A stretch of DNA of 60,936 nucleotides, counting the filler, from Nemertoderma westbladi (lineage: Eukaryota > Animalia > Xenacoelomorpha), in assembly GCA_032718475.1 (NCBI GenBank). It is 3 parts of 3 records of this genome, joined end to end, with 100 filler letters (N's around TTAATTAATTAA, not from the genome) between each part and the next. Parts side by side here need not be neighbours in the genome. Positions count along the whole stretch, not along the records: positions 24,919 to 49,704 come from JAUCBJ010008003.1; 2 more parts are not named here. One strand, given 5' to 3'. Position 1 is the stretch's first letter, and every line of letters starts with the position of its first letter. Below the pieces are notes generated by a model. It searched no databases and was not told the DNA's origin. It worked only from the letters and a program-made list of their open reading frames with translations. A program made the translations under genes and the position numbers. Below, one piece after another: positions 3,988 through 50,968 of this stretch.

Positions 3988-3993
3988 AATAAA
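3988..3993 (+). terminator. Candidate polyadenylation signal of RPL18
   Basis: AATAAA ~210 nt after the stop, followed by a T-rich tract. Confidence 0.5.
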
Positions 3994-4062
3994 ATACTTT
4001 TTTTGAGATTTTGTATCTTGATTATGTTTCCACAGTATTTATTTATAATAATGTTGTAAGAA

Positions 4063-6873: not shown

Positions 6874-7395
6874 TGTTCGGTTATAGAGACCTACATGATG
6901 GGTTTGGTGTCTAGAAAATGTCTTTAGTCTCGACGGAACGGCGATATTATATTAATCGAGTAACACAAAAGCAAATAAATTGAATTAACCGGTAGAATAT
7001 CAAATAAACAAATCAAATTATAATAATATTAAATATCACAAAGACAAATAAAGACAAACAAAGTAATAATTTCCAGTCATTTAAAGTTGACCGGGGTTTT
7101 TACTTCTTACATATGTAAAGGTGACTCTACAAAACAATTAAAGTAATGTGAAAAGATAGAGTGAGCCAATGCACATGGACAACAGCTTATATGGGGGCCT
7201 ACGGCCGTATACAGTAACACTGCCTAGACTTACAAATCAGAAATTCATGTTGGTTCAGCTGTGCATTTGTAACGACGCTAGGTGGCGTTCAAGTCATATC
7301 AATCAATTAACAAAGATTTAAAATATATAGGGCTATAAACCTAAATCGAGCAAAATAAGTAAACTACGACCTCAAATAACACTTTTGCGTCAACA
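6874..7395 (-). mobile_element. Candidate BEL/Pao-type LTR
   Basis: Minus strand reads ggaagcgg|TGTT...AACA (purine tract, then TGTT/AACA termini, ~520 bp) with an internal TATA-like catataag; partner LTR not seen. Confidence 0.5.
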
Positions 7396-7625
7396 CCGCT
7401 TCCATTCACTTAGCTCAGGCGGAACCCAATCATGGCAAAAACTCAAATTAAGTACAAAAATATATCTAGCATATAAAATGTCTCAGCTCGAGAACAAAAA
7501 TTAAGCTAAATTAATTATTTGGGACACCAATTACTTATTTTCGGTATATAATGTAAAAATAGGAATTTTACATGAGTCATATAAAGTAAAATGGCCGTAA
7601 CAAAAAGTAACCAGAAAAATAATGT

Positions 7626-10173
7626 TTATTTCTGGGTATTTTCTTCTTCGTGGGTCGCTTTGCGACGTTTCAATGGTGGAGAGCCATAACCGGGTACGGG
7701 AGATGGAGAACCTTGCACTTGTATTCCTTCAGTGGCGGAGGGGTGAAGTTCCAATGAGTCAGAAGGGGGTGCAACAGTTCGCGTAGTTGTTCCACCAGTA
7801 GATGTTCCCGGCTGAGAGTTGCTAACAATGGTCGAAGTGGAAACCGAATAATGTAACAATTTCACACCTTTACGGAGCGTCTTGGCTGGGGAAGACTGAG
7901 TAGAGAGGGAAAGTGCGGATTGTACCATCCGTTTCAAGATAGTGGTGGTAACTGGTCCCTTGAGAGTCTGGGACGAAGTTGCAATACCTCCTCGGTCAGA
8001 AGCGTACTTCATTGGTTTAACTGTTTCATCAGCGAGACTCGAGGTGTGTCCGAGATATGTAACACGATCGGAGGTCTGTAACAGTTCTGGATTCGCGGAA
8101 ACGAATTCGTGACTGAGATCCAGATCCTTTCTAATATGCTCAAGAAGATTATTATATGTAGTTAAATCTCCAGGGTTCATGCAACGGAGAAACATACACA
8201 CGTAATGAACATTAATGAGCTCCGAAACATTAAATAACAATTGATAATCAGGAAGGTTGGAACGTTGCACTTCAATCGCGGAAGCATAAGGATTGAAAGC
8301 AAAAACTCCGAAATAAGAGTGGGAAGATTCGTAACGTAATCGTGTGATTTGGTGCAAATCCACAGAGTGTTCCTACAATCTTATGTTTTTCATGAGAGAT
8401 GTCTCGTCATCCCTTTGAGTTGAGTCGAAAGAAAGGGCAGGATGTTGGATAATGTCCTTTCAATAAACATTTGTCACACTGTTCCGAGAATTGAGGACAG
8501 TTGAGAAGGTTTGGCTATATCAAATAGTCTACAATATGGACAGTGAAGTAGACAGTCAGAGCATTTAGCATAGACCTGACAAATCTCACCTGAAGGGGGG
8601 GTTTTGTAGGCGCGTGAACCACACTGAAGGCAATGCATCCTTCCCTGAGACACTGCAGAACAAAAAGCAAATTTCGTCAGGGGCTGCAGTCCAAGGTGCC
8701 ACGGAATGATGAATTCATCCATCATCTGGGGTAGGATCAATAACTGTGTAATCTTTTAAGTAAGAGGATAACTGTTTGTCTGATGTCTGTATAACTGACA
8801 TTGAGTAACCAGACTTAAGAATGGGACGTTCTAGAACAGTAGAGTGCAAGTTCTGATCATACACGTCCTTAAAGATAGCGAAACCTTTCCTATTTAATTC
8901 CTCAAAGCTGGTTGGACGTTTGTTTAATTGTCCCTTTAACATGGGGTCACGAGGGACGCTGATATTGGAATAAACGGCGCCAGGGGCAGTTAATGGACCA
9001 TTAAAACAATAACAGGAGTAGTTATCACCATACATATTTAAATAACGATTATACCGACCTTCCTTAAAGTCCCATCCGAGTTCGTGGAAGGATATATGTC
9101 TGATACCAGTGCGTTCCGCTCAATGCATTCCATTACCCACACATTCATAAATAACGTGGGACAAACCATGATCCTGGGCCCATGGAAGGATCATTTGCGT
9201 ATCTGCAAAGGGATAAGGGATATCCAACAAAGAGTCGGAGTCCTTATAAAGATCTGGATAGATCACAGAGCCGAGTTTACAGATCCTCTCGTTAAAGATC
9301 AAGTCCAGAACAGGTTGCGGTAACATCGAGGGTTTGATACCCAGAGCAGGGTGATGCTTGGTTTCAAGAACGTACCGATAAGATTTCTCGAATTGACCGT
9401 GTCGAGATAACATCTCCTGGAAGGATGGAGGTGTAAAGGTGGTGTTGGCATTCTGGGAGGTTTGCGTAAAAACATGTGTGGCTCCTGTTGAACAACGAAT
9501 ATGTATCAGCCAGGTCGAACTGAGTTCATTGTCCGATGCGGAACCTTTGTTATCATACAGCATTACGCAATATTGTTGGATGACCTCAAAGGTATTATTA
9601 AACTCGAGATATGCGACAGCTTCATCGACCTGACTGCCCATCATTGACTGTCTAGAGATCAGATAGAGCCTCGGGCGATAACTACCGATTTGTAGCCCCT
9701 GAACGTTTTCTACAACAGACGTTTCCTTTAACGTAGTAGATAGTTTGTCTTCTCGGAATCGGACGTCAATGTTCCAATGAATTGGCCGATCACTGATAAA
9801 GTTAGCGAGATTCCGAGGGGGCGCGGGTTTATCCTCAATAGTTTGTATATTAAAAGGTTTACAAAAGGTATTTAACTTTATTATATGTTCGAGATGCTTC
9901 TGCAGGGGCTCAATCTCGGCAATGTTGAGGGGATTAACTAAAGGTAGAAAATCCATGCTGCAGGCGGGATCCTCGGGTTTCATTACACATAATGTTGACC
10001 GAGTAAGACGAAATCCGGCGGTGGTCATGAATCCCATAGAACGGGGAACGGAGAGGACGTATTTTGAGGTTCTTATCCCGAATTAAAGTCTTTATTTGAT
10101 CAGCTCGACCAGGAGGAGCGATAATCCATTCATCGGTTTCATCTTGAATATGGCTTATATGGTTCTGCGTCAT
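7626..10173 (-). pseudogene. Frameshifted ~850-codon ORF of an unknown Cys/His-rich protein, paralog of 49805-50968
   Basis: Overlapping ORFs 9934-10173, 9120-10037, 8715-9035, 8474-8740 and 7626-8363; the last three align colinearly with the 49805-50968 protein (GYS..IQT, C.YCRL, GV.AF.PY, YVC.FLR, QPGTSTG, LHPS). Confidence 0.75.
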
Positions 10174-14907: not shown

Positions 14908-16265
14908 ACCAATTTGGACTAAAGGTCAACTAAAGCCTCTCCCCAAGAAAGGAGACCTCGGCATACCAACAAACTATCGTGGGATCTGTCTGCTTGTGGT
15001 AGCTGCCAAAATATACAATAAAATGATTCTATATAGGATTAGGCCTCGCATAGAGAAACTACTGCGTAAGAGCCAAAACGGATTTCGACCAAGTAGATCA
15101 ACAATAGCTCAGATACTTGCACTACGGAGACTGATTGAAGGAATTAAGTCAAAGAATCTCCCCGCTGTCATGACTTTTGTGGACTTCAAGAAGGCATTCG
15201 ACTCCATCCATAGAGGCAAAATGCTTGAAATCCTAAGAGCTTATGGAATACCAGAAGTAATTGTTGCTGGCATTGGATTGTTATATTGTGACACAGAAGC
15301 GCAGGTACTCTCACCAGATGGTGAAACTGAGTTTTTCTCAATCCTGGCTGGCGTACTGCAAGGTGACACATTAGCACCATTACTATTTGTAATTGTGCTG
15401 GATTACGCAATGAGGACGGCCACTAAGGGTGAAGACCTGGGATTCACACTTCAAGAACGCAGAAGTAGTAGATATCCGGCAACTACAGTCACAGACACCG
15501 ACTTGGCGGATGACATCGCCCTGCTCTCTAATACCCTAGCAGATGCACAGCTTCTACTAAATAAAGTGGAGAGGGCTGCTAAGGAGGTTGGATTGCATAT
15601 AAATGCTACAAAGACCGAATTCATGACCTTTAATGTTGATGGAAACTTGACAACCATTGATAATAATCAACTAAGGAAGGTCGATGACTTCCAGTACCTA
15701 GGATCATGGATAGAGAGTAGCAAAAAGGACATAGAAGTTAGGAAAGCAAAGGCTTGGGTAGCTCTATCAAAAATGGATACCATCTGGAAATCAGATCTCT
15801 CCAGGCACCTGAAGACTAAGTTCTTTCGAGCCACAGTGGAAAGTGTATTTTTATATGGGGGTGAGACCTGGACACTGACTAAATCACTTGAACAACGAAT
15901 TGATGGTTGCTACACAAGACTACTAAGGGCAGCCCTAAACATCAGCTGGAGACAACACATGACAAACGCCGAGCTTTATGGTACAATACCACCTGTATCA
16001 ACCACCCTCCGTGAACGCAGATTAAGATTCAGTGGGCACTGCTGGCGAAGTAAAGACGAGGTCATACCAGATCTACTTTTCTGGCAACCAACTCATGGAA
16101 AGCGTAGTCGTGGACGACCGGCCATAACATATATAGATCAACTTGAAAGGGATACTGAACTTAGGAGAAACGAAATTGCGACAACTATGGAGTTAATCGG
16201 GAAGCCTGGAAGGATCTCATTTCCACTGTCCGAGTTCGCTCGACCTAGGAGTAGTAGTAGTAAGT
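14908..16265 (+). mobile_element. 5'-truncated RTE-like LINE (reverse transcriptase) in LSm8 intron 2
   Basis: PKKGDL..NYRGI, QNGFR, FVDFKKAFDSI, GVLQGDTLAP, LADD (FADD expected), YLGS; apparent frameshift near the C-terminus; (TAG)n tail. Confidence 0.93.
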
Positions 16266-16654
16266 ACCACTACCAACACTAATAATGTATTAAAGTTCCA
16301 TTACTTATTGTATTGGCCCATGTGAAGAATACCAGACTTTCTACCGTTATATTTCACTTTGCAGTTACCCCCATATGAAGAATACCAGGTTTTCACCAAA
16401 AACACAGGTTAAAGAAGGGCTGAATTTAACCAAAACAATAAACGAATTAGTATATGTACAGGTTATAAGACAGAAATAAGCGCTATAAAACACTTAATAA
16501 AGATAAATTAAAAAAAATAAAAAATCTTCATATATAATATTCCAATAAAAAGTCGACCGAAAAGTGAAATCCTGGTATTCTTCACATGGGCGATTGTATT
16601 AGTAGGCCTACACCATGGACTGGAATATAAGGCCAAAAAAGTATAATGACACCC

Positions 16655-17173: not shown

Positions 17174-17264
17174 AGCTGTTGTTGGGGAACTGGACAGCTC
17201 TCTAGATAACACAATCGACCTGAAAAACATAAAAGCTGATCCGTTGAACCCCATAGTCCATTAA
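17174..17264 (+). CDS. LSM8: LSm8 coding exon 3
   Basis: ttgcag acceptor; AVVGELDSSLDNTIDLKNIKADPLNPIVH*; the three exons sum to 294 nt (97 aa plus stop), in frame. Confidence 0.93.
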
Positions 17265-17274
17265 AGATCCCGCT

Positions 17275-18939
17275 ATGACGAGTTGTTCCTCGTTGGAACC
17301 CACCCAGGACATGTGCTTCCTGGTGGACGACCTATCCGGCAGCGAGTCCCAAGGGGCCGACGAATGGGGCTGTCTCATCGTCCTACCCCGGTACAAGGTC
17401 AAGGGATTCCAACCACTGGGTCTCACTCGGGATTCCTATACCTTCGGGAGGGACCACAGCGGCTCAGTAGACTATTCCTTCGAAATGGCCGAGGCCGACA
17501 AACTATTCGTGGCCTACTCGAAACTCCACTTTAAACTCACCCGAGTCGTGAGCGGCACGAAAACCAAGGTTATAGTCGAAGACCACAGCAGCAATGGAAC
17601 CTTTATAAACGGAGACAAGATAGGCAAAGGGAAGACTCGCGAAATATTCAATAACTTCGAGATTTCTTTAGCGAAGGACGACAATAAAGTGTTTATGTAC
17701 CAAGATACTCGGGAGCAGACGCGCGCCGAGGCTGGGTTGCCGGCGGAAGTTGCGACCCGTTATACGTTGTGCAACAAACTGGGGGCCGGCGCCTGCGGGG
17801 AGGTCTTCCTGGCCTACTCGCGCCCGGACTGGGACCGGGAGTTCGCTATCAAAGTCGTACAGAAGCTAAAGTTCTCTATGGGGGGCACGGAGCGAGCCAA
17901 CCTGGCGGCGAGAGGGGTGCAGAGCGAGGTGGACATACTGAGGAGTCTGGAGCATCCTGGGGTGGTGCGCATACACGATGTGCATCAGAACGACGTAGCC
18001 TTCTACATCGTTCTAGAACACATGGCCGGAGGCGAGTTGTTCGATCGTATTGTCCGTAAGGAGAGACTCTGCGAGCCCTTAGCTCGGTTGTACTTCTACC
18101 AAATGGCTTTAGCGTTGGAATATCTCCATGATAAGTCGATAATACATCGGGATCTAAAGCCGGAAAACGTTCTGTTACTCGGCGAGGAGGATGAGACCGT
18201 AGTGAAACTCACCGACTTCGGATTGTCTCGGTTCGTCGGAGAGCAGAGTTTAATGAAGACTTTGTGCGGGACGCCGTCGTATCTGGCGCCGGAAGTCCTG
18301 CGGACTAACAGCGCGGGGAGCGCGGTCGTCGGTTACGATAAGCTCGTGGATTGTTGGAGCCTCGGGGTGATCCTGTACGCGATGCTCTCCGGCTATCCGC
18401 CGTTCTCGGAGGAGATCGAGGGTTTATCGCTGGTCGAGCAGATAACCCGAGGGGCGTATCAGTTCCACGCCGAGTCGTGGGGCGGCGTATCGCAGTCGGC
18501 GAAGGACCTCGTCAAGAAACTTATGACTGTGAACCCGAGACGACGGCTAACCGCCCAGAAGGCCGTCGCCCATCCGTGGAGTCGGGACGACGGGACCGTA
18601 GCCAGGGTTACCGAGCTGTGGGCTCGCGCCGCCATGCCGCCGCCCAGTCCCACGTCGTCGCCCTCCGGCGGGCGGAGTAAGAAGCGTCAGGCTGTGGACA
18701 GTCCGGATCGCGGTAAGGCGGTTCCCGTTAAGCGGACGTCCCCGGACACCCCGCTGCTCGTGGCCGACAAGGTCGGCATGACCTCCTTCGGGAAGGACTT
18801 TACCAAACGGTTGGACTTCGGAGCCAATGGGGTCATCTGCGGCAACCGGCGAGCGCCACCAAGCGGCGGTAAGAAGAACCTTCCTCTACGCAGTTCGGCT
18901 CGCATCGGCAATAAGAGAAATATCAACATCGACGACTGA
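17275..18939 (+). CDS. CHEK2: Checkpoint kinase 2, intronless
   Basis: N-terminal TQ/SQ motifs, FHA domain (FGR, YSKLHF, DHSSNGTFING), Ser/Thr kinase (LGAGACGEV, HRDLKPEN, DFG, SLMKTLCGTPSYLAPE). Confidence 0.93.
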   Translation: MTSCSSLEPTQDMCFLVDDLSGSESQGADEWGCLIVLPRYKVKGFQPLGLTRDSYTFGRDHSGSVDYSFEMAEADKLFVAYSKLHFKLTRVVSGTKTKVIVEDHSSNGTFINGDKIGKGKTREIFNNFEISLAKDDNKVFMYQDTREQTRAEAGLPAEVATRYTLCNKLGAGACGEVFLAYSRPDWDREFAIKVVQKLKFSMGGTERANLAARGVQSEVDILRSLEHPGVVRIHDVHQNDVAFYIVLEHMAGGELFDRIVRKERLCEPLARLYFYQMALALEYLHDKSIIHRDLKPENVLLLGEEDETVVKLTDFGLSRFVGEQSLMKTLCGTPSYLAPEVLRTNSAGSAVVGYDKLVDCWSLGVILYAMLSGYPPFSEEIEGLSLVEQITRGAYQFHAESWGGVSQSAKDLVKKLMTVNPRRRLTAQKAVAHPWSRDDGTVARVTELWARAAMPPPSPTSSPSGGRSKKRQAVDSPDRGKAVPVKRTSPDTPLLVADKVGMTSFGKDFTKRLDFGANGVICGNRRAPPSGGKKNLPLRSSARIGNKRNINIDD

Positions 18940-19689: not shown

Positions 19690-20215
19690 ACAACCAGTAG
19701 CTAACCTATTGAGTATCGTAAACACTAAGGCAACAACCAGTAGCTAACCTATTGAGTATGTCGCTTAAACGCTCATGTTATAAAACCTCCTAGCAACACC
19801 CGTAGTTACAACACCCACCCACTAGGCCGACATAGAGCTTCCTGATTCACACAACAACCAGTAGCTAACCTATTGAGTATGTCGCTTAAACGCTCATGTT
19901 ATAAAACCTCCTAGCAACACCCGTAGTTACAACACCCACCCACTAGGCCGACATAGAGCTTCCTGATTCACACAACAACCAGTAGCTAACCTATTGAGTA
20001 TGTCGCTTAAACGCTCATGTTATAAAACCTCCTAGCAACACCCGTAGTTACAACACCCACCCACTAGGCCGACATAGAGCTTCCTGATTCACACAACAAC
20101 CAGTAGCTAACCTATTGAGTATGTCGCTTAAACGCTCATGTTATAAAACCTCCTAGCAACACCCGTAGATACAACACCCACCCACTAGGCCGACATAGAG
20201 CTTCCTGATTCACCA
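19690..20215. repeat. 121-bp tandem repeat (~4 copies), possibly within a minus-strand LTR (19544-20256)
   Basis: tagctaacct recurs at 19741, 19862, 19983 and 20104; the enclosing segment has tgtgt/acaca termini and is preceded on the minus strand by gggagcgg. Confidence 0.85.
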
Positions 20216-20244
20216 TGGTTGACTTTATTAGTAAGAGTAAATAA

Positions 20245-20433
20245 GTAGTGAACACACCGCTCCCACTGAAACCTAATAATTCATATTGACTTAGTGCTGG
20301 TAGACGGGTAGTGAACACACCGCTCCCACTGAAACCTAATAATTCATATTGACTTAGTGCTGGTAGACGGGTAGTGAACACACCGCTCCCACTGAAACCT
20401 AATAATTCATATTGACTTAGTGCTGGTAGACGG
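20245..20433. repeat. 63-bp tandem repeat, 3 copies
   Basis: gtagtgaacacaccgctccc starts at 20245, 20308 and 20371. Confidence 0.95.
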
Positions 20434-21120
20434 GCCTTAGCGTTTATTCATTCTACACTTTGTTATCTATTAGATTATTTTAAGGAACGTTAATCTTATC
20501 AGACTGATAATTAATTACAACCATTGTTATTGTTACTTAAAGGTTATCATCACCGATCCAATACTTAATTAGTTAGTAATAATTATTGTGCTGCTGATAC
20601 TGTTACCTAGTTTGTAATCATTCAGTTTTATCGTTTATTTTTCTCTGTGGGTTTATTATATTGTGATGTAACTGTAGGAAATGTTTATAGTTTTAACTTG
20701 CGTTCTGTGCATCGTCCCGCAATTGCAAATAATGCGCAATTCGCACGGTAGACTAGACTATGACTCACATTGTAACTGTGCTACCTAGAACCTACCCATT
20801 ATGACGGTATCAACTCTAAAACAACTGTTTCCAGTTGAATCTTCCGTACGCACGTTTATTTTATTTTCAGATAATTTCAGATTAAGTTTGTATATATTTG
20901 TTACTATTAAATTCCAGCGGGTTATAAATCTGAAACAATGTTTTATTTATTTCTCATTCGGGCGATGCTATGTGCGATGGCCAACTCACAAACCCACATC
21001 CTTGTTTTCTAAACAATATTTTACAGAAAATTGTCCCTTTATCGATCCCTACAATCTATCAATCCATTTACAGCTTTATTTATAATTATAATATTATGTT
21101 ATTATATAATAATAACACCC

Positions 21121-22115
21121 CCGTACACAGCAAGCCAAAACACATTAAATGTAGGGAAAACCGCCGTACACAGCAAGCCAAAACACATTATGTAGGGAAA
21201 ACCGCCGTACACAGCAAGCCAAAACACAAATGTAGGGAAAACCGTCGTACACAGCAAGCCAAAACACTTTAAATGTAGGGAAAACCGTCGTACACAGCAA
21301 GCCAAAACACATTAAATGTAGGGAAAACCGTCGTACACAGCAAGCCAAAACACATTAAATGTAGGGAAAACCGTCGTACACAGCAAGCCAAAACACATTA
21401 TGTAGGGAAAACCGCCGTACACAGCAAGCCAAAACACATTAAATGTAGGGAAAACCGCCGTACACAGCAAGCCAAAACACATTATGTAGGGAAAACCGCC
21501 GTACACAGCAAGCCAAAACACATTAAATGTAGGGAAAACCGTCGTACACAGCAAGCCAAAACACATTAAATGTAGGGAAAACCGTCGTACACAGCAAGCC
21601 AAAACACATTATGTAGGGAAAACCGCCGTACACAGCAAGCCAAAACACATTAAATGTAGGGAAAACCGCCGTACACAGCAAGCCAAAACACATTATGTAG
21701 GGAAAACCGCCGTACACAGCAAGCCAAAACACATTAAATGTAGGGAAAACCGTCGTACACAGCAAGCCAAAACACTTTGAATGTAGGGAAAACCGTCGTA
21801 CACAGCAAGCCAAAACACATTAAATGTAGGGAAAACCGTCGTACACAGCAAGCCAAAACACATTAAATGTAGGGAAAACCGTCGTACACAGCAAGCCAAA
21901 ACACATTAAATGTAGGGAAAACCGTCGTACACAGCAAGCCAAAACACTTTATATGTAGGGAAAACCGTCGTACACAGCAAGCCAACACACTTTAAATGTA
22001 GGGAAAACCGTCGTACACAGCAATCCAAAACACTTTATATGTAGGGAAAACCGTCGTACACAGCAAGCCAAAACACTTTAAATGTAGGGAAAACCGTCGT
22101 ACACAGCAAGCCAAA
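21121..22115. repeat. 42-43-bp minisatellite (~23 copies)
   Basis: Unit gtacacagcaagccaaaacacattaaatgtagggaaaaccgtc, head to tail, no spacers. Confidence 0.97.
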
Positions 22116-22496
22116 AGGGGCCATCCATAAATGACGTCATGCTGGACAGGGGGGGGGTTGGTATTTCGTGATGATTTGTGACGAGGGGGAGGAGGGGTGT
22201 CCGCAATATCGTGACGTCACATTATAAGTTTCCGATAAAATTACTGTATATATATTAAATACATAATGTAGTATACACATTATGTATTAACGTGTTTACT
22301 ATTAAACTATTACCTCTTACAATGATAACCATTAAAATCTTACCTTACGACCTCTACTGCCCTTCCATAATTGGTAAAATTAGAGAGCGTGTTTGTAAAG
22401 AATGTCATCTTTTTGCATCTAAATTTATATTAAAATTCTTACATCCCTTCATGGTAGCGGTAGTTCCAAAACCCGTTTTGATTATCAATCCCCTGC

Positions 22497-22638: not shown

Positions 22639-24818
22639 TAGGCCGACATAGAGCTTCCTGATTCACACAACAACCAGTAGCTAACCTATTGAGTATGTCG
22701 CTTAAACGCTCATGTTATAAAACCTCCTAGCAACACCCGTAGTTACAACACCCACCCACTAGGCCGACATAGAGCTTCCTGATTCACACAACAACCAGTA
22801 GCTAACCTATTGAGTATGTCGCTTAAACGCTCATGTTATAAAACCTCCTAGCAACACCCGTAGATACAACACCCACCCACTAGGCCGACATAGAGCTTCC
22901 TGATTCACCATGGTTGACTTTATTAGTAAGAGTAAATAAGTAGTGAACACACCGCTCCCACTGAAACCTAATAATTCATATTGACTTAGTGCTGGTAGAC
23001 GGGTAGTGAACACACCGCTCCCACTGAAACCTAATAATTCATATTGACTTAGTGCTGGTAGACGGGTAGTGAACACACCGCTCCCACTGAAACCTAATAA
23101 TTCATATTGACTTAGTGCTGGTAGACGGGCCTTAGCGTTTATTCATTCTACACTTTGTTATCTATTAGATTATTTTAAGGAACGTTAATCTTATCAGACT
23201 GATAATTAATTACAACCATTGTTATTGTTACTTAAAGGTTATCATCACCGATCCAATACTTAATTAGTTAGTAATAATTATTGTGCTGCTGATACTGTTA
23301 CCTAGTTTGTAATCATTCAGTTTTATCGTTTATTTTTCTCTGTGGGTTTATTATATTGTGATGTAACTGTAGGAAATGTTTATAGTTTTAACTTGCGTTC
23401 TGTGCATCGTCCCGCAATTGCAAATAATGCGCAATTCGCACGGTAGACTAGACTATGACTCACATTGTAACTGTGCTACCTAGAACCTACCCATTATGAC
23501 GGTATCAACTCTAAAACAACTGTTTCCAGTTGAATCTTCCGTACGCACGTTTATTTTATTTTCAGATAATTTCAGATTAAGTTTGTATATATTTGTTACT
23601 ATTAAATTCCAGCGGGTTATAAATCTGAAACAATGTTTTATTTATTTCTCATTCGGGCGATGCTATGTGCGATGGCCAACTCACAAACCCACATCCTTGT
23701 TTTCTAAACAATATTTTACAGAAAATTGTCCCTTTATCGATCCCTACAATCTATCAATCCATTTACAGCTTTATTTATAATTATAATATTATGTTATTAT
23801 ATAATAATAACACCCCCGTACACAGCAAGCCAAAACACATTAAATGTAGGGAAAACCGCCGTACACAGCAAGCCAAAACACATTATGTAGGGAAAACCGC
23901 CGTACACAGCAAGCCAAAACACAAATGTAGGGAAAACCGTCGTACACAGCAAGCCAAAACACTTTAAATGTAGGGAAAACCGTCGTACACAGCAAGCCAA
24001 AACACATTAAATGTAGGGAAAACCGTCGTACACAGCAAGCCAAAACACATTAAATGTAGGGAAAACCGTCGTACACAGCAAGCCAAAACACATTATGTAG
24101 GGAAAACCGCCGTACACAGCAAGCCAAAACACATTAAATGTAGGGAAAACCGCCGTACACAGCAAGCCAAAACACATTATGTAGGGAAAACCGCCGTACA
24201 CAGCAAGCCAAAACACATTAAATGTAGGGAAAACCGTCGTACACAGCAAGCCAAAACACATTAAATGTAGGGAAAACCGTCGTACACAGCAAGCCAAAAC
24301 ACATTATGTAGGGAAAACCGCCGTACACAGCAAGCCAAAACACATTAAATGTAGGGAAAACCGCCGTACACAGCAAGCCAAAACACATTATGTAGGGAAA
24401 ACCGCCGTACACAGCAAGCCAAAACACATTAAATGTAGGGAAAACCGTCGTACACAGCAAGCCAAAACACTTTGAATGTAGGGAAAACCGTCGTACACAG
24501 CAAGCCAAAACACATTAAATGTAGGGAAAACCGTCGTACACAGCAAGCCAAAACACATTAAATGTAGGGAAAACCGTCGTACACAGCAAGCCAAAACACA
24601 TTAAATGTAGGGAAAACCGTCGTACACAGCAAGCCAAAACACTTTATATGTAGGGAAAACCGTCGTACACAGCAAGCCAACACACTTTAAATGTAGGGAA
24701 AACCGTCGTACACAGCAATCCAAAACACTTTATATGTAGGGAAAACCGTCGTACACAGCAAGCCAAAACACTTTAAATGTAGGGAAAACCGTCGTACACA
24801 GCAAGCCAAAAGGGGCCA
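22639..24818 (+). repeat. Direct duplicate of 19944-22123 (offset 2695 bp)
   Basis: Identical ORF translations at +2695; irregular minisatellite variants reproduced in the same order; runs into the contig end. Confidence 0.95.
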
Positions 24819-25660: not shown

Positions 25661-26037
25661 TGTGAGCATGACCTACATATATATATTACAAAGTTTGAGA
25701 AAGAATGCCCCTAAATGAGGAAAATAAGCAAGATACAGAGCTAGAACCTCAATGCAATTATAGGCCTATCGTATGATATCATTGGAAATTCTGATAAATG
25801 AGCAGCTGTTCAATGTCTGAGTACTACATTATAGTTATACGTGTTAGAAAAAACATAAATATTACTGTAGTATTGTTAATCAGTGAAATCGAATGAATAA
25901 ATTTATCACATTTGGAGTAAACATCATATTTGATATTTGGGAAATATATATAGTTCTAAACAATCAATAAAATAAATAGGAATACTTACGATCCAGACCC
26001 ACGTCCTTCTCGAGCTGAAATAAAAATAAAACAGCTG

Positions 26038-28256
26038 TGATACGTTACTGTTTGTGTGATACGTACCTGTTTGTGTGATACGTACCTGTTTGTGTGATAC
26101 GTTACTGTTTGTTTGATACGTACCTGTTTGTGTGATACGTACATGTTTGTTTGATACGTACGTGTTTGTTTGATACGTACCTGTTTGTGTGATACGTACC
26201 TGTTTGTGTGATACGTACATGTTTGTTTGATACGTACGTGTTTGTTTGATACGTACCTGTTTGTGTGATACGTACGTGTTTGTTTGATACGTACCTGTTT
26301 GTGTGATACGTACCTGTTTGTGTGATACGTACCTGTTTGTGTGATACGTACCTGTTTGTTTGATACGTACCTGTTTGTTTGATACGTACCTGTTTGTGTG
26401 ATACGTACATGTTTGTTTGATACGTACGTGTTTGTTTGATACGTACCTGTTTGTGTGATACGTACCTGTTTGTGTGATACGTACATGTTTGTTTGATACG
26501 TACGTGTTTGTTTGATACGTACCTGTTTGTGTGATACGTACCTGTTTGTGTGATACGTACCTGTTTGTGTGATACGTATCTGTCTGTGTGATACGTACCT
26601 GTTTGTGTGATACGTACCTGTTTGTGTGATACGTACCTGTTTGTTTGATACGTACCTGTTTGTTTGATACGTAACTGTTTGTTTGATACGTACCTGTTTG
26701 TGTGATACGTACCTGTTTGTGTGATACGTACCTGTTTGTGTGATACGTACCTGTTTGTTTGATACGTACCTGTTTGTTTGATACGTACCTGTTTGTGTGA
26801 TACGTACCTGTTTGTGTGATACGTACCTGTTTGTGTGATACGTACCTGTTTGTGTGATACGTACCTGTCTGTGTGATACGTACCTGTTTGTGTGATACGT
26901 ACCTGTTTGTGTGATACGTACCTGTTTGTTTGATACGTACCTGTTTGTTTGATACGTAACTGTTTGTTTGATACGTACCTGTTTGTTTGATACGTACCTG
27001 TTTGTTTGATACGTACCTGTTTGTGTGATACGTACCTGTTTGTTTGATACATACCTGTTTGTTTGATACGTACCTGTTTGTGTGATACGTACCTGTTGGT
27101 TTGATACGTACCTGTTTGTGTGATACGTACCTGTTTGTTTTATATGTACCTGTTTGTTTGATACGTACCTGTTTGTTTGATAAGTACCTGTTTGTTTGAT
27201 ACGTACCTGTTTGTGTGATATGTACCTGTTTGTTTGGTACGTACCTGCTTGTTTGATACATACCTGTTTGTTTGATACGTACCTGTTTGTTTGATACGTA
27301 CCTGTTTGTTTGATACGTGCCTGTTTCTGTGATACGTACCTGTTTGTTTGATACGTACCTGTTTGTTTGATACGTACCTGTTTGTTTGATACGTACCTGT
27401 TTGTGTGATACGTACCAGTTTGTTTGATACGTACCTGTTTGTTTGATACGTACCTGTTTGTTTCATACGTACCTGTTTGTTTGATACGTACCTGTTTGTG
27501 TGATACGTACCTGTTTGTGTGATAGGTACCTGTTTGTGTGATACGTACCTGTTTGTGTGATACGTGCCTGTTTGTGTGATACGTACCTGTTTGTGTGATA
27601 CGTACCTGTTTGTTTGATACGTACCTGTTTGTTTCATACGTACCTGTTTGTTTGATACGTACCTGTTTGTTTGATACGTACCTGTTTGTGTGATACGTAC
27701 CTGTTTGTGTGATAGGTACCTGTTTGTGTGATACGTACCTGTTTGTGTGATACGTGCCTGATTGTGTGATACGTACCTGTTTGTGTGATACGTACCTGTT
27801 TGTGTGATACGTACCTGTTTGTTTCATACGTACCTGTTTGTTTGATACGTACCTGTTTGTTTGATACGTACCTGTTTGTGTGATACGTACCTGTTTGTGT
27901 GATAGGTACCTGTTTGTGTGATACGTACCTGTTTGTGTGATACGTGCCTGTTTGTGTGATACGTACCTGTTTGTGTGATACGTACCTGTTTGTGTGATAC
28001 GTACCTGTTTGTTTCATACGTACCTGTTTGTTTGATACGTACCTGTTTGTTTGATAAGTACCTGTTTGTTTGATACGTACCTGTTTGTGTGATATGTACC
28101 TGTTTGTTTGATACGTACCTGTTTGTTTGATACGTACCTGTTTGTGTGATACGTACCTGTTTGTGTGATACGTACCTGTTTGTGTGATACGTACCTGTTT
28201 GTTTGATACGTACCTGTTTGTTTGATACGTACCTGTTTGTGTGATATGTACCTGTT
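26038..28256. repeat. 19-bp satellite (~115 copies) with higher-order structure
   Basis: Unit gatacgtacctgtttgt(g/t)t; variant tttcatacg recurs at ~27461, 27632, 27822 and 28012. Confidence 0.97.
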
Positions 28257-28655
28257 TTAAATTCACTATGTATTTTCTAAGTATGCGCTACGCCTACAGT
28301 AGTGTACACAGTTACAGTAGATACCAGTTGGCATATAGATGATTTATTCATTAACATAAATACGTACCGGGCCATTCTGACGATTCTGCGGGGCCTTTGA
28401 ACATTTGTTTAAACGATTTTTTCAACGAGCTAGGCCTAAAATAGTAACAACGATTATAGATACAACAGCCACTTAAAGGCGGGTAATTTAAACCAAGACG
28501 ACGCAGATTCCTACTGGGAACCACCCGTGTACACAGGCTGAAAGGATGATACTATATATCAGGACACCAAGAAATTGAACAGCTAAGGCGTGAAAATAGT
28601 GATAAAAAGTAGCTAAAATAAAAAAAATAGATAAAATAATTTTGTTCAGAAGTGG

Positions 28656-28760
28656 AAAAAATGAGTAATCACGTCACCGGGGGTTGAACCAGCGCTATAC
28701 GTATGTTTCGGCTTATCAGGCCTCATCAGTAGCGCTAACCAGTTCAGCCACTTGCCCCTG
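28656..28760 (-). ncRNA. tRNA-like Pol III transcription unit hosting a hammerhead ribozyme
   Basis: Minus strand: A box tggctgaactgg (28750-28739) with D-arm gct/agc; B box ggttcaaccc (28690-28681) in a T-arm gctgg/ccggt; TTTTTT terminator (28661-28656); TATA-like aatataag ~25-30 nt upstream. Confidence 0.75.
28691..28736 (-). ncRNA. Minimal type I hammerhead ribozyme
   Basis: agcgcta-CTGATGA-ggc(ctgataa)gcc-GAAA-c(atac)g-TA-tagcgct: complete conserved core, 7-bp stem I, 3-bp stem II, 2-bp stem III, GUA cleavage triplet. Confidence 0.88.
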
Positions 28761-30307
28761 ACATTTGCTCTCCCACCTACACTTATATTGAACAGGCAGT
28801 CTTAAGTCTTACTTTGGGTTTCATACATATATTTATTCATGGTAATTGTTCGTAAATTCACAAGCTTGCAACAATTAATGGACGGATCCATTGCTATCGA
28901 TATTGTTGTTGTAATAAATTACGCGCAATAAATGCCGGGCAGCCTAATAACGAAAAACGCAAAACGAAACAATGGGCAAAGTACACAATAGTAGTATATG
29001 TTAAAAAAACACTGTTTGTAGGAAATGTATTACAATATAATACAATATTACACTGGTCATCATTCCTCATTTACATCCAAGAGGGTCGAAAGAAATTTAA
29101 TAGTAACGCACGGAACTGATAATATGTAAGTATGTAACGCACGGAACTGACAATATGTAACGCATGGAATAACTTTGACGTCCAAATTCGGTACAAAGAA
29201 ACCCGAAAATGATAACACAAACAAATAGGGAGGGATCAAAATGCTCAAAACCCGAACTTTTAAAAGTTTGAAGTCACTAATCCAATTGGAAGAATAAAAA
29301 AAATAAACTTTTGTACAAAAAAAGTAACGCACGGAAAGTAACGCACAGAATCGAACAGGGGGTGCTAGAACTCCTATTTCTAACGGGATACACAAGGAAT
29401 GGATAGTGCAGATCGATTCCTTACCACTCAAAACATGGGGTTTCAAAAAAACCGCACACAAAAAGGACGATTATTAAGCATTTTAATGGAAGTTAATTTG
29501 CACTTCTTAAGATTTTTTTTTGTGGCATGTTGCACGACACATTTTTAAAGTTTATCAAATTTATTGAAGGATCCAATAACGTTAGTTTAAACGCAACAAA
29601 ATATGTGATTTAATATATGCTTTACACAATAGCACAAAAAAAATCGGAAAATTGAAACATTTTTTTGAAGTGAAAAATGTTACACCTTTTCAATAATGCC
29701 CTCTTCTCCTACAATTATAAACGAAATAAAGCGAAATTTTGCTGAAAGCATGTCCAAATGCTCCCTATGGAGTATCTGAATTCTACGATTATGATTGGTC
29801 ATTCTATAATTAATTTAACTGTTGCTAGGCAACCAACAGGTCCCTCGCAACCAAAACCTTGCATACACAATTAGGTCCGATAATAAACCTACTATCATCA
29901 AAGTTTCATCCAATACCATCAACATTAAGTGCAAGAAGTTGTGTGTACAAACAAACACGCGTGAGAAATAAGGACATCCAATTCTTGGATCCATTCATAA
30001 TCCAATTCTTGGATCCGTTCAAAAATAACAATAGTGATGTTCCAGAATAATTGAATTATTGTGCAATCAGCTGTGATTCAATCAGAAATTAATAAAATTT
30101 ACAATTACCTGTCGTGCATTAAATATTATCTCGGTAACTAGACGTAACATACAATTTTATAAATAAATATATCTAAGGTAACTGATGCAGAAATTATGCA
30201 TTTGAACTGAAAGAATGTTTTATCAATAAAACGAACAGACATGATGAATGTGGCGACAATTATAATAAAATTAATATTAAAGTGAAGCACTGACAACCAC
30301 ACAAGTA

Positions 30308-30418
30308 TATAAGTAGTGCGATGCTAAATTGCGAACTTTTTCAAGCACAATAATATTGGAGTTATTATTGTGCTTGAAAAGTTCGCAATTTAGTGTACGA
30401 ATGGTCGCACTACTTATA
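30308..30418. repeat. ~110-nt hairpin
   Basis: taagtagtgcga..ctaaattgcgaactttttcaagcacaataat / attattgtgcttgaaaagttcgcaatttag..tcgcactactta. Confidence 0.8.
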
Positions 30419-30442
30419 TTTGCAGTATTCTACTTGTACTTA

Positions 30443-31239
30443 CTTACTGGTAATAACGGGCCTAGAGACTAGAGTGTAACTTACGGGCCTAGAGACTAGT
30501 GTAACTTACTGATAATAACGGGACTAGAGACTAGAGTGTAACTTACGGGCCTAGAGACTTGTGTAACTTACTGGTAATAACGGGCCTAGAGACTAGAGTG
30601 TAACTTACGGGCCTAGAGACTAGAGTGTAACTTACGGGCCTAGAAACTAGAGTGTAACTTACTGGTAATAACGGGACTAGAGACTAGAGTGTAACTTACG
30701 GGCCTAGAGACTAGAGTGTAACTTAGGGGCCTAGAGACTAGAGTGTAACTTACGGGCCTAGAGACTAGAGTGTAACTTACGGGCCTAGAAACTAGAGTGT
30801 TACTTACTGGTAATAACGGGCCTAGAGACTAGAGTGTAACTAACTGGTAATAACGGGCCTAGAGACTAGAGTGTAACTTACTGGTAATAGCGGGCCTAGA
30901 GACTAGAGTGTAACTTACGGGCCTAGAGACTAGTGTAACTTACTGATAATAACGGGACTAGAGACTAGAGTGTAACTTACGGGCCTAGAGACTAGTGTAA
31001 CTTACTGGAAATAACGCACCTAGAGACTAGAGTGTATCTTACTGGTAATAATGGGCCTAGAGACTAGATTGTAACTTATGGGCCTAGAGACTAGAGTGTA
31101 ACTTACGGGCCTAGAGACTAGAGTGTAACTTACGGGCCTAGAGACTAGAGTGTAACTTACGGGCATAGAGACTAGAGTGTAACTTACGGGTCTAGAGACT
31201 AGAGTGTAACTTACCGGCCTAGAGACTAGTGTAACTTAC
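30443..31239. repeat. 27/37-bp composite minisatellite
   Basis: Core ctagagactagagtgtaacttac separated by gggc or tggtaataacgggc. Confidence 0.95.
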
Positions 31240-34200
31240 GATAATTTATAGGAACTCGACTCTTCGTTGCCTTTGGACGCATTGCTCATCTCATCAATCG
31301 GATTAATATCACGTTGTGGTGGCGGTGGCGTGGTTCGCATTATCGGTATCCCTCTGTTTGAAAAGAAACAGCAAAAGTTTTAGAAATTATCAGTCTTCCA
31401 TATACTGGAGGAAGGGTTGTTGAATAAATTGCGCAATTTCATCTGCGCAGCGCTGATGTGAGGCAGAAACGTTTTCGCACAGCCGAGGTTCAACACCCAG
31501 GGACTTCACTCTATTTTTTATATTTATGTACTTTTTATTTAATATAAAATTAAACAATTTTTACTTACAAGGATAGTGTTTCCTGACGATCACTCTTCGA
31601 TACATCTATAAAATAAACAAACATCTCATTAGTCGCTATAACATTATAATTATTAGGGATAGAGTTCCGTATCGCACTACATTTTTAAAACATATATTAT
31701 TGGTACTATTACAACGTTGAAGAATTCTAGAACCATAGAAAAGTATTATATACTATTTTAGAACATAAACAAATTAAAATATATAATGTTCTAGAACATA
31801 TAGCTAGTTTTTTTTAATTTTTAAAAGCTAGTAGATTTTAAAAAAATTATTTTTAAATAGATTTCTGAATACATGAATATTGATCCGTATCTATTGAATA
31901 TTAATGTAACTAATTAGATTAATTATCCATTGGGTATTGGCTTTTGTTTGCCTTTAATATCTCATGGAATCAGTTAAGTTTTCCTTTTCTTATCTGTCGC
32001 CTCCACGTTTATTCTGTTAGGTTTTCGGAGAAATTGTCTTCATAGTTTCCGCTCCTCACACAAAGCTCTGGCGTCGTATATTTTCCCAATTTTTATCCGT
32101 ACCTTGTCTTTTAATTTCCTTAATTTGACTTTTGTGCATTTCGCACCCCAAACATTTTTTTACAATTTTTTTAATTACTAGCAATTTTAAATTTGAAAAA
32201 TAATTAGCTACATGTTCTAGAACATTAATTTTTTTATTTTATTTACGTTCTAGAATGGTGTATAATAATTACATTTTGTTCTAGAACTCTACAATGTTGC
32301 CATGGTAACAATGACTTATGTTATAAAATTGTAGTGCTATACTAAACGTCGGCACCACTGTGGAGTGGGTCACCATTTTAATTTTTTTTTATTGTGTATT
32401 TTAACCGATATTATAAGTGTACTAAGTTTATTTAAATATTGTTTCCAACTACAACACAATTCTAGAACGTTTATATTCATTTCATATTTTAAAGATTCAT
32501 TTGTGTTTTTTGACATTATGAGTAGAAACATTCAAAGACATTTATATTCGAGACAGTCCACTGATTTAAATATTATAGAAATTTCCCAAAATTTAAAAGA
32601 TGAGGGGAGTGCGATAACATTTGCACAATCCTGTGGCCTGTTACCCATACCCACTAGTAAAAGTTCTTGCAAACATGTTGGTTGTAGCTACTCTGCCCAC
32701 ATTTTTAGACGTACAAAACACGGAGGTACTTGTCTAATGTGGCGTTGCAAAGGGCCACAAAGACACCAATTATCGGCAAGAAACGGGACGTGGTTTGGTG
32801 CATCTAAACTACTAGTATCCCAGATTCTATGGATTACGTTTATGTTTCTTCAAGACATTACTTTGAACACAGCACACCTGATGCTCAATGGAATGATCGG
32901 AGGAATCAACGACCATACATTCGTTGATTGGCATAATTTCATTCGGGAACTAATGAATAGTGACATGCATAACGCTGAGCCAATGGGGGGAGTTGGGATG
33001 ACAGTCCAGATCGACGAATCGATCTTTCGCGGTAAGCGTAAGTATAATCGTGGGAGGAAGCTGCTCGGGGATGTAACAAGAAGGAGAAAGATCTACAATA
33101 AACGAGTCAAAAAGATCTACAATAAACGAGTCGGTCAATTCAATACATCGGCAAGGAATTATGGTAAACGGGTAAATGGACCGTGGATTTTCGGAATTGT
33201 ATGTAAATCCCCAGGTGGCCAAGTGGATGTCCGATTGTTTTATGTTCAACGTCGAAACATGCTGACCTTACGCCCAATAGTGGAAGCCAACGTTAAAGGA
33301 GGGACCCTAATCCATAGTGACGAGTGGGCCGCTTACTGTGGTAAGACTGTGGGAATCACTAGCAAGACAAGGCCATGGAGGGCCCTCGATGGCAGCGGCA
33401 AGTATTTACACGAAAGTGTGAACCATAGTATCAAAGGCCGATTTGTGAACATTGTCACGGGCGCCCATACGCAGCGGATTGAAGGAATATGGTCCCACGC
33501 CAAAACAACGATCATGAGGAAAAAGAGGGGAACGAAGAACTTGTTGCTCGAAAACCATCTCGCCGAGTTTCGTTGGAGGATGCTGCACAAAGTTTCTCCA
33601 TTTACTGATTTAATCGATTTAATCAAGAAATCATTCCCTACACAGTGACTCAAGCAACATTTCAAATTCACTTATTCTAATAAACAAAACTAATGTTTAT
33701 AGTGTGTGTAAAAAATAGTAAATATATAATTGTATAAAATTAAAAAATAAATGGTGACCCACTCCACAGTGGTGCCCTAAACGTCTAGAGTTCCATATGC
33801 AGTCGCATTTTTGATATTTTGATATTAATGAATGAAATGATGTACTTATTGCGTAGTAATATCACCATTGACTTCATTGCAACATTAAAAAAAATATTGT
33901 GTTCTAGAACATTAGCTAATCGACTTGCTAGTACTTTTTCAAAACATGATTTATTATATATAAATTTTTTTTTGAAATTTCAAAAAATACTGCAATTTTT
34001 TTGTGTTCTAGAACATTAGTAGACATGTTTTTTTATGGTAGCTAGTGTTTTTTACTAGCTAGTATTTTTTGTAATTATAAAAAAATGTGAAAACATTGAT
34101 ATTTCAGGTTTAAACTGTTGCAGAATATATTAATGACCAAAAATATTGATGATATTATAGCATTTTACATTTTTGCATGGTAACAATGATTTATGTTACA

Positions 34201-34919: not shown

Positions 34920-35815
34920 TGCAGCCTTCATAATTTATGGAGGCTGGATTATAACTGTACTGTGCTGTAATTATACTAGTAGAACTGTAAACTATAATTG
35001 TACTGTGTGTGTGCAGGCATTGGGAGAGTTATATACATTTTCATTTGTTGCAATTTGGTCAACGGACGTAATTGAAAACTCCTCGTTTTAAGCAAGATAC
35101 TAAATTTTATGGTAGCTAGTGTTTTAGGTAGGTTTAGCTAGTAATTTCAACACTGGTTCCGACATCCTACTTCCCTCTATAAATATTTTTTAGTAGCTAG
35201 TTTTTATTACTATTTGTATAGAAAATGTTCCAGAAGATATTAGCTATTCATTTTTAAAAAAAATGTTCTAGAACGAATATTTATTGTTCTAGAACATTAA
35301 AAAAAAATCTGGATTCGATTTAAAACGTATGGAATCGTCCTAAAATGTGTTTAAGATCAATAACATAAATTGTGAAAAAAGATATTGTGAAAAAATTTAT
35401 TTGAAAAAAAAAAAATTTTGAAATTTTTTTTTATTGATTTTAAACACGTTAGAACGATTCCATGCGTTTTAAATCGAATCGAGCTTTTTTTCTAAAAAAT
35501 GTTCTAGAACAAAAAATATTTGTTCAAGAACATATTTTTTTTTTAAAAATGAATAGCTAACATGTTCTGGAACATTTTCTATACAAATAGAAATAAGAAC
35601 TATCTACTATAATATATTTATAGAAGGAAGTAGGATAAAACACTAGCTATCATAAAATTTAGTATCTTGCTTAAAACGAGGAGGCTTCAATTACGTCCGT
35701 TGACCAAATTGCAACAAATGAAAATTTATAGAACTCTCCCCATGCCTGCACACACGCAGTACAGCAGCACGCTACCGCTTATATAATCCAGCCTCCATAA
35801 ATTATGAAGGCTGCA
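34920..35815. mobile_element. Near-fully palindromic MITE
   Basis: gcagccttcataatttatggaggctggattata / tataatccagcctccataaattatgaaggctgc, with pairing extending inward ~400 bp. Confidence 0.85.
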
Positions 35816-41253: not shown

Positions 41254-46164
<4,911 letters not shown>

Positions 46165-49704: not shown

Positions 49705-49804
49705 NNNNNNNNNNNNNNNNNNNNNNNNNNNNNNNNNNNNNNNNNNNNTTAATTAATTAANNNNNNNNNNNNNNNNNNNNNNNNNNNNNNNNNNNNNNNN
49801 NNNN
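49705..49804. other. Artificial contig linker
   Basis: N-run containing TTAATTAATTAA. Confidence 0.97.
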
Positions 49805-50968
49805 ATCCCCACCGGTTATTCTGTCGTAGAAATTCAGACGATAGGTCCACTTGAGGAGACGGCCATGCCTACCTCAACTATACAAGGGGAAGACGAACCC
49901 ATATGTTTAGAATCGGAAGAGATTCAGCCCCCCACTTCTCGGAGTAGCGATAGCGACTATATATTGGAATGGTATCAAGGTCCACAGTGTCTTACTGCGT
50001 ATGATTATCGCCACGCCAATTATGTTTCTCGGCAACGTTGTCGGCTGTGCGCATCGAGAGACCATATTACGTCTATGGACACCAACGATCTCTGTTCCTA
50101 TTTCCACGAACAACCGTCGATGGAAATCTATTGTGCATATTGTCGGCTTAATAATTTGCACATTTTTGCTGTCTGCCCCCAATTTATGACTCAATGCCAT
50201 CATTGTCAATTAAAAGGACACGCCAGCTTTGATTGTCCCTTTAACCATGATTTAGAGAGCGTAGATGAAATGATTGTACTACGTTATATCAGAGCCTGGG
50301 AAGCGAACGCTGATTTACATTGTGATTCACGCCATCGCTATTATCCTGGACGCGCTTACGAAGGAGTTTATGCGTTCCATCCTTATTTGTTTGCCTCCGT
50401 CGAGCAGAAATCGCGCCTATCAAGTTATGAACTATTGAAGCGCGTTGGAGAATGTATTTCAACCAAATATGTATGCAAATTTCTCAGGAGCATTAATCCG
50501 AGTGACATCCATTCTTACAACTTAATAAACTTTATCCGTCAAGACCCTGCCTATGGAGACTTATTTGTCAACTCACACCCTGAGTTACAAGAAGTATATC
50601 GACGGCCTTACGAGTACCGAGCCCGCGAACGCGAGTTGGAAAGAACCATTAAACCAAGGAAGTTTCTAACTACCTATGGTCCACCCACGGCCCTCGTGCA
50701 GACCACTCGTACAGGACCCGTAAGAGCGGCTGTCTTGAAACGAGCTCTCAAAGCCGTTAGACCCCTCTCCCCGGACGTTGATGTCAATCAACCCGGTACT
50801 TCGACCGGCGAATATACCGATCGCAATCCCATACCTTCTGATGCAATCATATTGCACCCTTCACCCAGGAGTTATAGCCCTCCTCGTAAAGTGGCTCGCC
50901 CCAAAGAGAAAAGGACTCTTGCTAGCTTTAAAAAATTGCGTAAACGCCGTCCGCGCAAGAAAGACTAA
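49805..50968 (+). CDS. 5'-truncated ORF of an unknown zinc-knuckle protein
   Basis: Open from the contig start (IPTGYSVVEIQT...); CxxC pairs, CHHCQLKGHASFDC (CX2CX4HX4C), basic C-terminus KKLRKRRPRKKD; paralog of 7626-10173. Confidence 0.8.
   Translation: MPTGYSVVEIQTIGPLEETAMPTSTIQGEDEPICLESEEIQPPTSRSSDSDYILEWYQGPQCLTAYDYRHANYVSRQRCRLCASRDHITSMDTNDLCSYFHEQPSMEIYCAYCRLNNLHIFAVCPQFMTQCHHCQLKGHASFDCPFNHDLESVDEMIVLRYIRAWEANADLHCDSRHRYYPGRAYEGVYAFHPYLFASVEQKSRLSSYELLKRVGECISTKYVCKFLRSINPSDIHSYNLINFIRQDPAYGDLFVNSHPELQEVYRRPYEYRARERELERTIKPRKFLTTYGPPTALVQTTRTGPVRAAVLKRALKAVRPLSPDVDVNQPGTSTGEYTDRNPIPSDAIILHPSPRSYSPPRKVARPKEKRTLASFKKLRKRRPRKKD

Follow-up and report, generated by a model that had tools for sequence, protein, structure and literature searches.

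A hammerhead motif between the A and B boxes of an abundant tRNA-like repeat, a candidate non-LTR retrozyme, in Nemertoderma westbladi

A complete type I hammerhead motif lies on the minus strand at positions 28740–28687, between the A box and the B box of a tRNA-like unit, in a 60,936-nucleotide stretch of DNA from Nemertoderma westbladi (assembly GCA_032718475.1; the window, in which the locus falls within JAUCBJ010008003.1). Rather than a lone non-coding RNA, the locus represents a single copy of a short repeat that is very abundant. Judging from its sequence and from the joints between its copies, it is probably a dispersed copy of a tRNA-derived non-LTR retrozyme, predicted to be copied and inserted by the enzymes of Penelope-like elements (PLEs). 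All element features given below are on the minus strand.

The motif was the single match of a type I hammerhead descriptor in the window when both strands were scanned. In the order of the RNA, sequence reading gave the 5′ strand of helix I (28736–28730), the catalytic core CUGAUGA (28723–28729, also found by the descriptor), helix II with loop II (28710–28722; 3 bp in this copy, resembling an anticodon stem-loop), GAAA (28709–28706), a 2-bp helix III closed by a tetraloop (28706–28699), the GUA triplet (28700–28698), and the 3′ strand of helix I (28691–28697). Reading, descriptor, and alignment to the Rfam family Hammerhead_HH9 agree on the segment from GAAA to GUA (28698–28709). The 3′ strand of helix I is also a 7-nt direct repeat of 28737–28731, and 28737–28730 is a palindrome in itself. 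Two additional T residues directly after the A box (28737–28738) had been left out of the initial annotation. With them, the HH9 alignment and the repeat search place a loop 1 bulge UUA, putatively from an old D loop, together with the 5′ strand of helix I at 28730–28738. The core elements CUGANGA, GAAA, and NUH thus follow each other in type I order. To assess chance occurrence, the 50,095 bases of the window outside tandem repeats were put through 1500 dinucleotide shuffles, and the results were scanned. Any loose hammerhead match appeared in 138 of them, a helix I of at least 7 bp together with a helix II of at least 3 bp in two, and a helix I of at least 8 bp in none; the observed locus reaches 11 when G-U pairs are counted. 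As the only such descriptor match in the window, equaled in 2/1500 shuffles, the annotated hammerhead with full core on the minus strand was borne out, with a predicted cut after GUA (28698/28697).

The Rfam comparison envisaged in the initial annotation gave a divided result: no match at the gathering level, and relaxed-level matches to Hammerhead_HH9 (18 bits, E 0.015; gathering 52) and Hammerhead_3 (21.7 bits, E 0.063; gathering 48.5), both scores being far below gathering. Aligned to HH9, the locus shows a 6-bp helix I, the UUA bulge, and a distal helix. A canonical animal type I hammerhead is described as having a helix I of 6 bp with loop 1, a helix II of 4 bp, and a helix III of 1–2 bp with a palindromic loop (PMC4209133). 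These sizes are found here with the family-majority letters only; in this copy, helix II has 3 bp and the palindrome is 6/8. The architecture is that of canonical animal type I, and the label "minimal, PLE-type" was dropped. A type III reading with a cut after GUC at 28760 was also considered and is weaker, its first helix I pair being a mismatch.

The tRNA-derived part extends over 28673–28762, with a 4-bp acceptor-like stem (28762–28759 with 28676–28673) and decayed D and T stems. A pattern scan placed the A box at 28739–28750 and the B box at 28680–28690, 48 nt after the A box, and this pair at the hammerhead locus was the only one found in the window by the pattern. A run of six T (28656–28661), read as a predicted Pol III terminator, lies 19 nt further on. 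With boxes flanking the motif and T6 downstream, the hammerhead is nested in a tRNA-type internal promoter, as annotated. Both boxes of a classical tRNA SINE are present at a spacing of 48 nt; in the SINE consensus, 30–35 nt separate them (PMC8969392). A classical tRNA SINE starts 10–15 nt before its A box; the family homology here extends to 28807, 57 nt before that box. A TATA-like motif had been noted as well. This copy indeed carries an upstream TATAA (28787–28783), which differs by one letter from the family loose-end consensus and is not a family feature.

ARAGORN reported no tRNA at the locus, where the cloverleaf of a tRNA gene is lacking: the D stem retains two of four pairs and the T stem three of five. 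Forced into a cloverleaf, the RNA reached −13.6 to −15.6 kcal/mol, compared with −26.9 kcal/mol for the forced hammerhead and −29.1 kcal/mol for the free fold. The suggested competition between tRNA-like and ribozyme folds was rejected on these pair counts and on the much weaker energy of the forced cloverleaf; in the modeled folds, the cloverleaf is decayed and does not compete with the hammerhead. A-box bases 28746–28740 instead pair with the B-box region as a distal extension of helix I, with pair probabilities of 0.73–0.99 for six of the seven pairs. For this copy, the probabilities were 0.66–0.96 in helix I, 0.81–0.99 in helix II, and 0.01 in helix III. Its free fold pairs across the core, which is thereby buried, and lies 2.2 kcal/mol below the hammerhead fold. 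The whole unit folds no more stably than shuffled sequences (z 0.05; another estimate, −0.5 to 0.8). We infer that the tRNA features seem to have been retained as promoter boxes in the DNA and reused as a scaffold for the ribozyme.

Contigs from four DNA runs (X1–X4; three samples, three studies) were compared with the window over 28290–29190. Summed contig depth in X1–X3 was 85,000–275,000 over 28662–28754, against 23.5–40.4 in the left flank. At 28724–28754 it was 85,000–238,000, with ratios to the left flank of 3,600–8,200; the overall depth ratios of 1,900–8,200 are sums over overlapping contigs and not copy numbers. In the four runs, 36, 38, 38, and 4 contigs, respectively, ran past 28640 into other sequence. 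Dozens of loci are thus seen directly, and we infer that the family likely has hundreds to thousands. The assignment to the SINE/retrozyme class made from the sequence is supported.

Depth jumps and contig matches delimit this copy of the repeat at 28640–28807 (~168 bp), and the annotated limits of 28656–28760 were too short. About 14 more letters beyond 28640 are shared among the loose ends, giving a unit of ~170–185 bp. The family reaches ~45 nt upstream of the tRNA-like start. In this traveling 5′ flank (28763–28807) lie the TATAA and the upstream arm of an inverted repeat, and the flank pairs in the folded unit with the 3′ flank (28640–28655), to which it is complementary. The inverted repeats are subterminal: family sequence continues for ~14 nt beyond one of them and for ~12 nt beyond the other. 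Since the flanks belong to the mobile unit but fall outside the Pol III transcript predicted for it, the idea of a stand-alone unit of ~100 nt was abandoned. The GC content of the unit is 46% by hand count, and the element is, like a retrozyme, a non-coding repeat of 150–450 bp with a type I hammerhead and a GC content below 50%. No further family copy was found in the window, and no target-site duplication was seen around this copy; a 9-nt direct repeat (28574/28787) was taken as chance.

Other repeats surround the element. A 19-bp satellite of ~117 copies (26036–28257) lies just to its left, and further repeats lie beside it at 28876–29030 and 29041–29190 (X1 summed depth ~850–3,600 and 160, respectively); an opposite-strand joint 28876/28997 recurs in three runs. 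The window also contains a 113-bp near-palindrome (30307–30419) and a 765-bp region with a 78% inverted self-match (34999–35763), MITE-like, a 27-bp-based array (30441–31240), a 4.4-kb (GCT)n array (41383–45795), and broken pieces of an LTR-element pol (55508–58068). Two 2180-bp stretches (19944–22123 and 22639–24818) are 100% identical, the second ending at an N gap, and likely represent an assembly duplication. Open reading frames without a Pfam match were found at 7626–10082 (−) and 49757–50968 (+); visible motifs shared by the translations of 7626–8372 and 49757–50968 suggest a repeat-borne protein family. The genes for eL18 (3192–3779) and Chk2 (17257–18939) are intronless open coding sequences, either retrocopies or signs of an intron-poor genome. 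In an eL18 tree of 43 rows including the window (33 picked by named taxon among 120 matches listed, plus 10 others), the window fell outside a supported 33-row clade of sampled protostomes and deuterostomes and near corals and some of these others, a placement that rests on one short protein with bootstrap not settled.

The contigs also show where this copy departs from its family. At 28713, the majority letter (82–99% of depth) gives helix II its fourth pair, and at 28704 the majority letter (92–98% of depth) turns 28706–28699 into a perfect 8-nt palindrome. At 28743, a frequent letter (5–56%) agrees with the A box and leaves a G-U pair in place. Loop II reads GAU in this copy and GUU in 50–61% of the depth in X1–X3 and 8% in X4. 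Two observations speak against strict selection: at the base of helix II, the conserved pair is replaced by G-U in 35–45% of the depth in X1–X3, and one X4 contig (29% of the depth there) has four extra letters beside the core. Among the variants listed (40 of 65 rows), 16 variant places fall within 28640–28780, and none of them hits the 12 core or the 12 helix I positions; the probability of this by chance is 0.22 for the core alone and 0.04 for core and helix I together. From these letters, the family ribozyme is predicted to be better than that of this copy. The two private changes would weaken helices II and III, and this copy probably cuts weakly or is a dead end.

The palindrome of loop III, annotated as a possible 6/8 pairing between two molecules, was confirmed and becomes 8/8 with the family-majority letter at 28704. 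That dimerization is obligatory seems doubtful. In invertebrates, according to Cervera and de la Peña, helix III typically has 2 bp and a tetraloop; they report monomers that cleave efficiently in a coral (~0.8 per minute) and more slowly in a mussel (~0.1 per minute), and an axolotl ribozyme that cleaves weakly as a monomer and strongly as a dimer (PMC7229834). Dimer dependence is therefore possible and not required.

Joints between copies bear on how the family moves. Twelve were listed inside the element, namely seven opposite-strand joints, three local duplications of 36–43 nt, and two deletions. Four of the seven (28702/28779, 28730/28801, 28732/28776, and 28769/28807) are necessarily 5′-to-5′, and because the lengths of their sides cannot fit upward (X1 depth is absent at 28817–28847), both pieces must run toward the 3′ end of the element. 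The layout is that of an inverted, 5′-truncated copy head-to-head with a forward copy. At two of these joints, the short side reaches 28640–28641; both recur in X1 and X2/X3, that is, in two samples of two studies, and are therefore not library chimeras. The 5′ ends at the joints vary (28753–28807). An inverted, 5′-truncated partner at the 5′ end is a characteristic structure of PLE insertions (PMC8557442) and is what we observe, although copies nested in one another give similar joints and may be what the opposite-strand joints reflect instead. A PLE protein family was not detected among the nine window ORFs scanned. No whole-unit head-to-tail joint occurred among the 12 listed, a kind of joint that short contigs and the divergent ends of this copy would hide; an 8-letter word common to the loose-end consensuses of both termini is a hint of tandem arrangement only. 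Depth does not change across the cut site; most copies therefore span it, as expected of re-ligated or uncut templates. Mobilization of the family by a PLE reverse transcriptase/endonuclease is, in our view, likely.

Two other modes of spread were weighed against it. The repeat could be a DNA-mobilized element of the MITE or Helitron type that carries the Pol III hammerhead cassette as cargo, the ~105-nt RNA being a terminal product with no role in movement. The mutually complementary flanks outside the predicted Pol III transcript, the T6 run, and an IS1595-type transposase in the window (32335–33648) would fit such an element. Its inverted repeats are subterminal and not terminal, however; the 5′ ends at the joints vary, no target-site duplication is seen at this copy, and inverted 5′-truncated partners are a PLE trait, which makes this account unlikely. 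An ordinary LINE-mobilized tRNA SINE with a passenger hammerhead, perhaps inserted between the 7-nt direct repeats and perhaps trimming or limiting the RNA, would explain the A and B boxes, the direct repeats around the core (in one contig, precisely the 40 nt separating these repeats, which form helix I, are missing), and the steep drop in depth upstream of the tRNA start; an RTE-like reverse transcriptase is also present in the window (14909–16282). The depth drop is confounded by the mismatches of this copy in that region, though, and the ~45 nt by which the family precedes the tRNA start would not be held by a SINE transcript. There is no A-tail, and the inverted partners share the 3′ end. 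We regard this second account, too, as improbable.

The activity and the nature of the RNA may also be questioned. If the ribozyme were a catalytically dead or never-active relic, its motif would be inherited without selection in a repeat that spread for other reasons. The buried core in the free fold of this copy, the common G-U pair at the base of helix II, and the non-significant conservation test for the core alone (0.22) point in this direction. Against it, the majority letters improve the ribozyme, core and helix I together are free of any variant among those listed, and the C of a CpG varies in 35–45% of the depth while the adjacent catalytic G is not among the listed variants; a relic is thus very unlikely. 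A conserved single-copy host RNA with a regulatory ribozyme, such as a vault-like or tRNA-like Pol III gene, would account for the A box, the B box, the T6 run, and the upstream TATAA of this copy. The very high number of heterogeneous copies largely refutes it for the family, and the private changes in this copy and a TATAA that is not the family letter also count against it, leaving it extremely improbable.

For the preferred reading, a retrozyme moved by PLE enzymes, we propose the following cycle. The A and B boxes would recruit Pol III at the DNA level, and transcription would start near 28762. In the RNA, a hammerhead would form in which the paired boxes make up outer helix I, and cleavage would follow GUA at 28698, in the monomer or in a dimer joined by the palindromic loop III. 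A hammerhead cut leaves cyclic phosphate and 5′-OH ends. A monomer transcript of ~28762–28658 (105 nt) would stop at the T6 run and lack both flanks; it could therefore not template the whole unit, and the source RNA would have to arise by read-through, either of source copies in tandem or of transcription begun at a host promoter. The T6 run speaks against Pol III read-through and is the weak point of the cycle. Two cuts would free a piece of unit length in which the B box precedes the A box. A promoter-competent template would be restored only if RtcB re-ligated this piece into a circle or if the RNA escaped cutting. The PLE reverse transcriptase/endonuclease would then copy this template into new sites. 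Several of these steps have counterparts elsewhere: RtcB circularizes retrozyme monomers in vitro (PMC7229834), Sm-alpha propagation is thought to need tandem read-through (PMC6765202), and animal retrozymes, often monomers with a widely varying monomer share, are argued to be non-autonomous derivatives of PLEs (bioRxiv 10.64898/2026.07.22.740005).

The ribozyme was annotated as standing in place of the anticodon arm; the likeness of helix II suggests that it may rather have been built around that arm. Eukaryote-type tRNA-Asn(GUU) genes from giant-virus contigs are collinear with the element over the A box, D-arm strand, anticodon arm, and T loop. Helix II plus GAAA can be aligned to the Asn anticodon arm with agreement at 14 of 15 letters; the alignment has two one-base gaps, which lie opposite each other and form a new pair. 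Random helices II reached an equally good score in 216 and 185 out of 20,000 trials and, when given a hammerhead-like loop bias, in 865 out of 20,000, so that the likeness to an Asn/Ile anticodon arm (p 0.01–0.04) is suggestive only. A search pattern combining the D-arm word with the letters after helix II, chosen with a likeness to tRNA-Asn already in view, retrieved 24 loci: 17 tRNA-Asn, one tRNA-Ile(GAU) with an Asn-like body, and six non-tRNAs. On a phage contig, a tRNA-Ile(GAU) agrees in its body with the tRNA-Asn genes of the giant-virus contigs, which points to a shift of anticodon. An independent pattern without helix II gave 119 mostly phage loci (40 Ile-GAU, 23 Asp, 22 Ile-UAU, 11 Met, and 7 Asn), so Asn is not singled out; the two arms from this set that scored best were Ile-GAU and Asn-GUU. 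Counting against a tRNA origin, the first pattern was directed at tRNA-Asn from the outset, the loop consensus of Rfam Hammerhead_3 is similar too, this copy carries the minority variant at its last loop letter, and the 7-nt direct repeats are consistent with the insertion of a ready-made ribozyme. We therefore put forward as a tentative and rather doubtful proposal, drawn from these alignments, that the ribozyme was made from a tRNA-Asn(GUU)-type SINE by two short insertions. The old anticodon stem-loop would have become helix II, the bases following it GAAA, the D loop loop 1, and the A and B boxes outer helix I; the promoter would be cut beside the old anticodon arm and restored only on rejoining by RtcB.

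To our knowledge, the promoters of animal hammerhead repeats are mostly not known, and the origin of natural hammerheads is open. In the present element, one short sequence would be a promoter in DNA and a ribozyme scaffold in RNA. With the predicted cut between the promoter boxes, only re-ligated circles or uncut RNA would give promoter-bearing copies, which offers a direct test of spread through circles. The inverted 5′-truncated partners would provide structural support for the mobilization of retrozymes by PLEs, for which the arguments so far have come mainly from co-occurrence and from homology of pLTRs. Should helix II prove to be an old anticodon arm, the family would map a path from tRNA to ribozyme, along which the de novo origin of a natural hammerhead could be traced.

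A hammerhead placed between A and B boxes was not described in the portions of the literature covered by our search, outside which lay the original Sm-alpha paper and the cnidarian retrozyme sequences of PMC7229834. Searches with a hammerhead-then-B-box pattern covered collections that contain little animal DNA: 26 loci in viral contigs, none hammerhead-like on inspection (zero loci once the D-arm word was added), 101 loci in metagenomes, none with a helix I of more than 2 bp, and three loci in prokaryote genomes, none with a helix II or a B box.

Among known systems, animal non-LTR retrozymes share with the element a non-coding unit of 150–450 bp, a canonical type I hammerhead, self-paired ends, common monomers, and likely mobilization by PLEs (PMC7229834; bioRxiv 10.64898/2026.07.22.740005). 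They are known as tandem arrays and circular RNA, whereas the element is known from DNA contigs only. The accessible text of the preprint (bioRxiv 10.64898/2026.07.22.740005) contains no mention of tRNA, Pol III, B box, or anticodon, and the tRNA passages available from PMC7229834 deal with tRNA processing and ligases. PLEs share the inverted 5′-truncated partners and the palindromic helix III (PMC4209133; PMC8557442). Compared with the minimal hammerhead of PLE pLTRs, characterized by a helix II of 7–8 bp, a helix I of 4–5 bp, and an unpaired nucleotide 5′ of helix II (PMC4209133), the element shows none of these features, and it has no ORF. Helenus TRIMs likewise have a tRNA-derived promoter inside the unit, with an upstream flank and a lost cloverleaf; they differ by two LTRs, a PBS, a PPT, and 4–5-bp duplications, none of which is seen in the element, and the available description of Helenus includes no ribozyme (PMC10886601).

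The comparison with Schistosoma Sm-alpha made in the initial annotation is supported. Sm-alpha and Sj-alpha are, like the element, high-copy tRNA-related repeats that combine a Pol III-type promoter with a type I hammerhead (PMC6765202; PMC2770079). Sm-alpha was linked to tRNA-Gln (PMC6765202; PMC2770079), whereas the element resembles Asn/Ile. In Sm-alpha, the promoter is followed by the hammerhead (PMC6765202), an order that the element does not have; here, the ribozyme lies between the boxes, the boxes serve as helix I, and the predicted cut splits the promoter. On the best reading, this nesting of the ribozyme inside its promoter is what is new in the element relative to Sm-alpha-like retrozymes.
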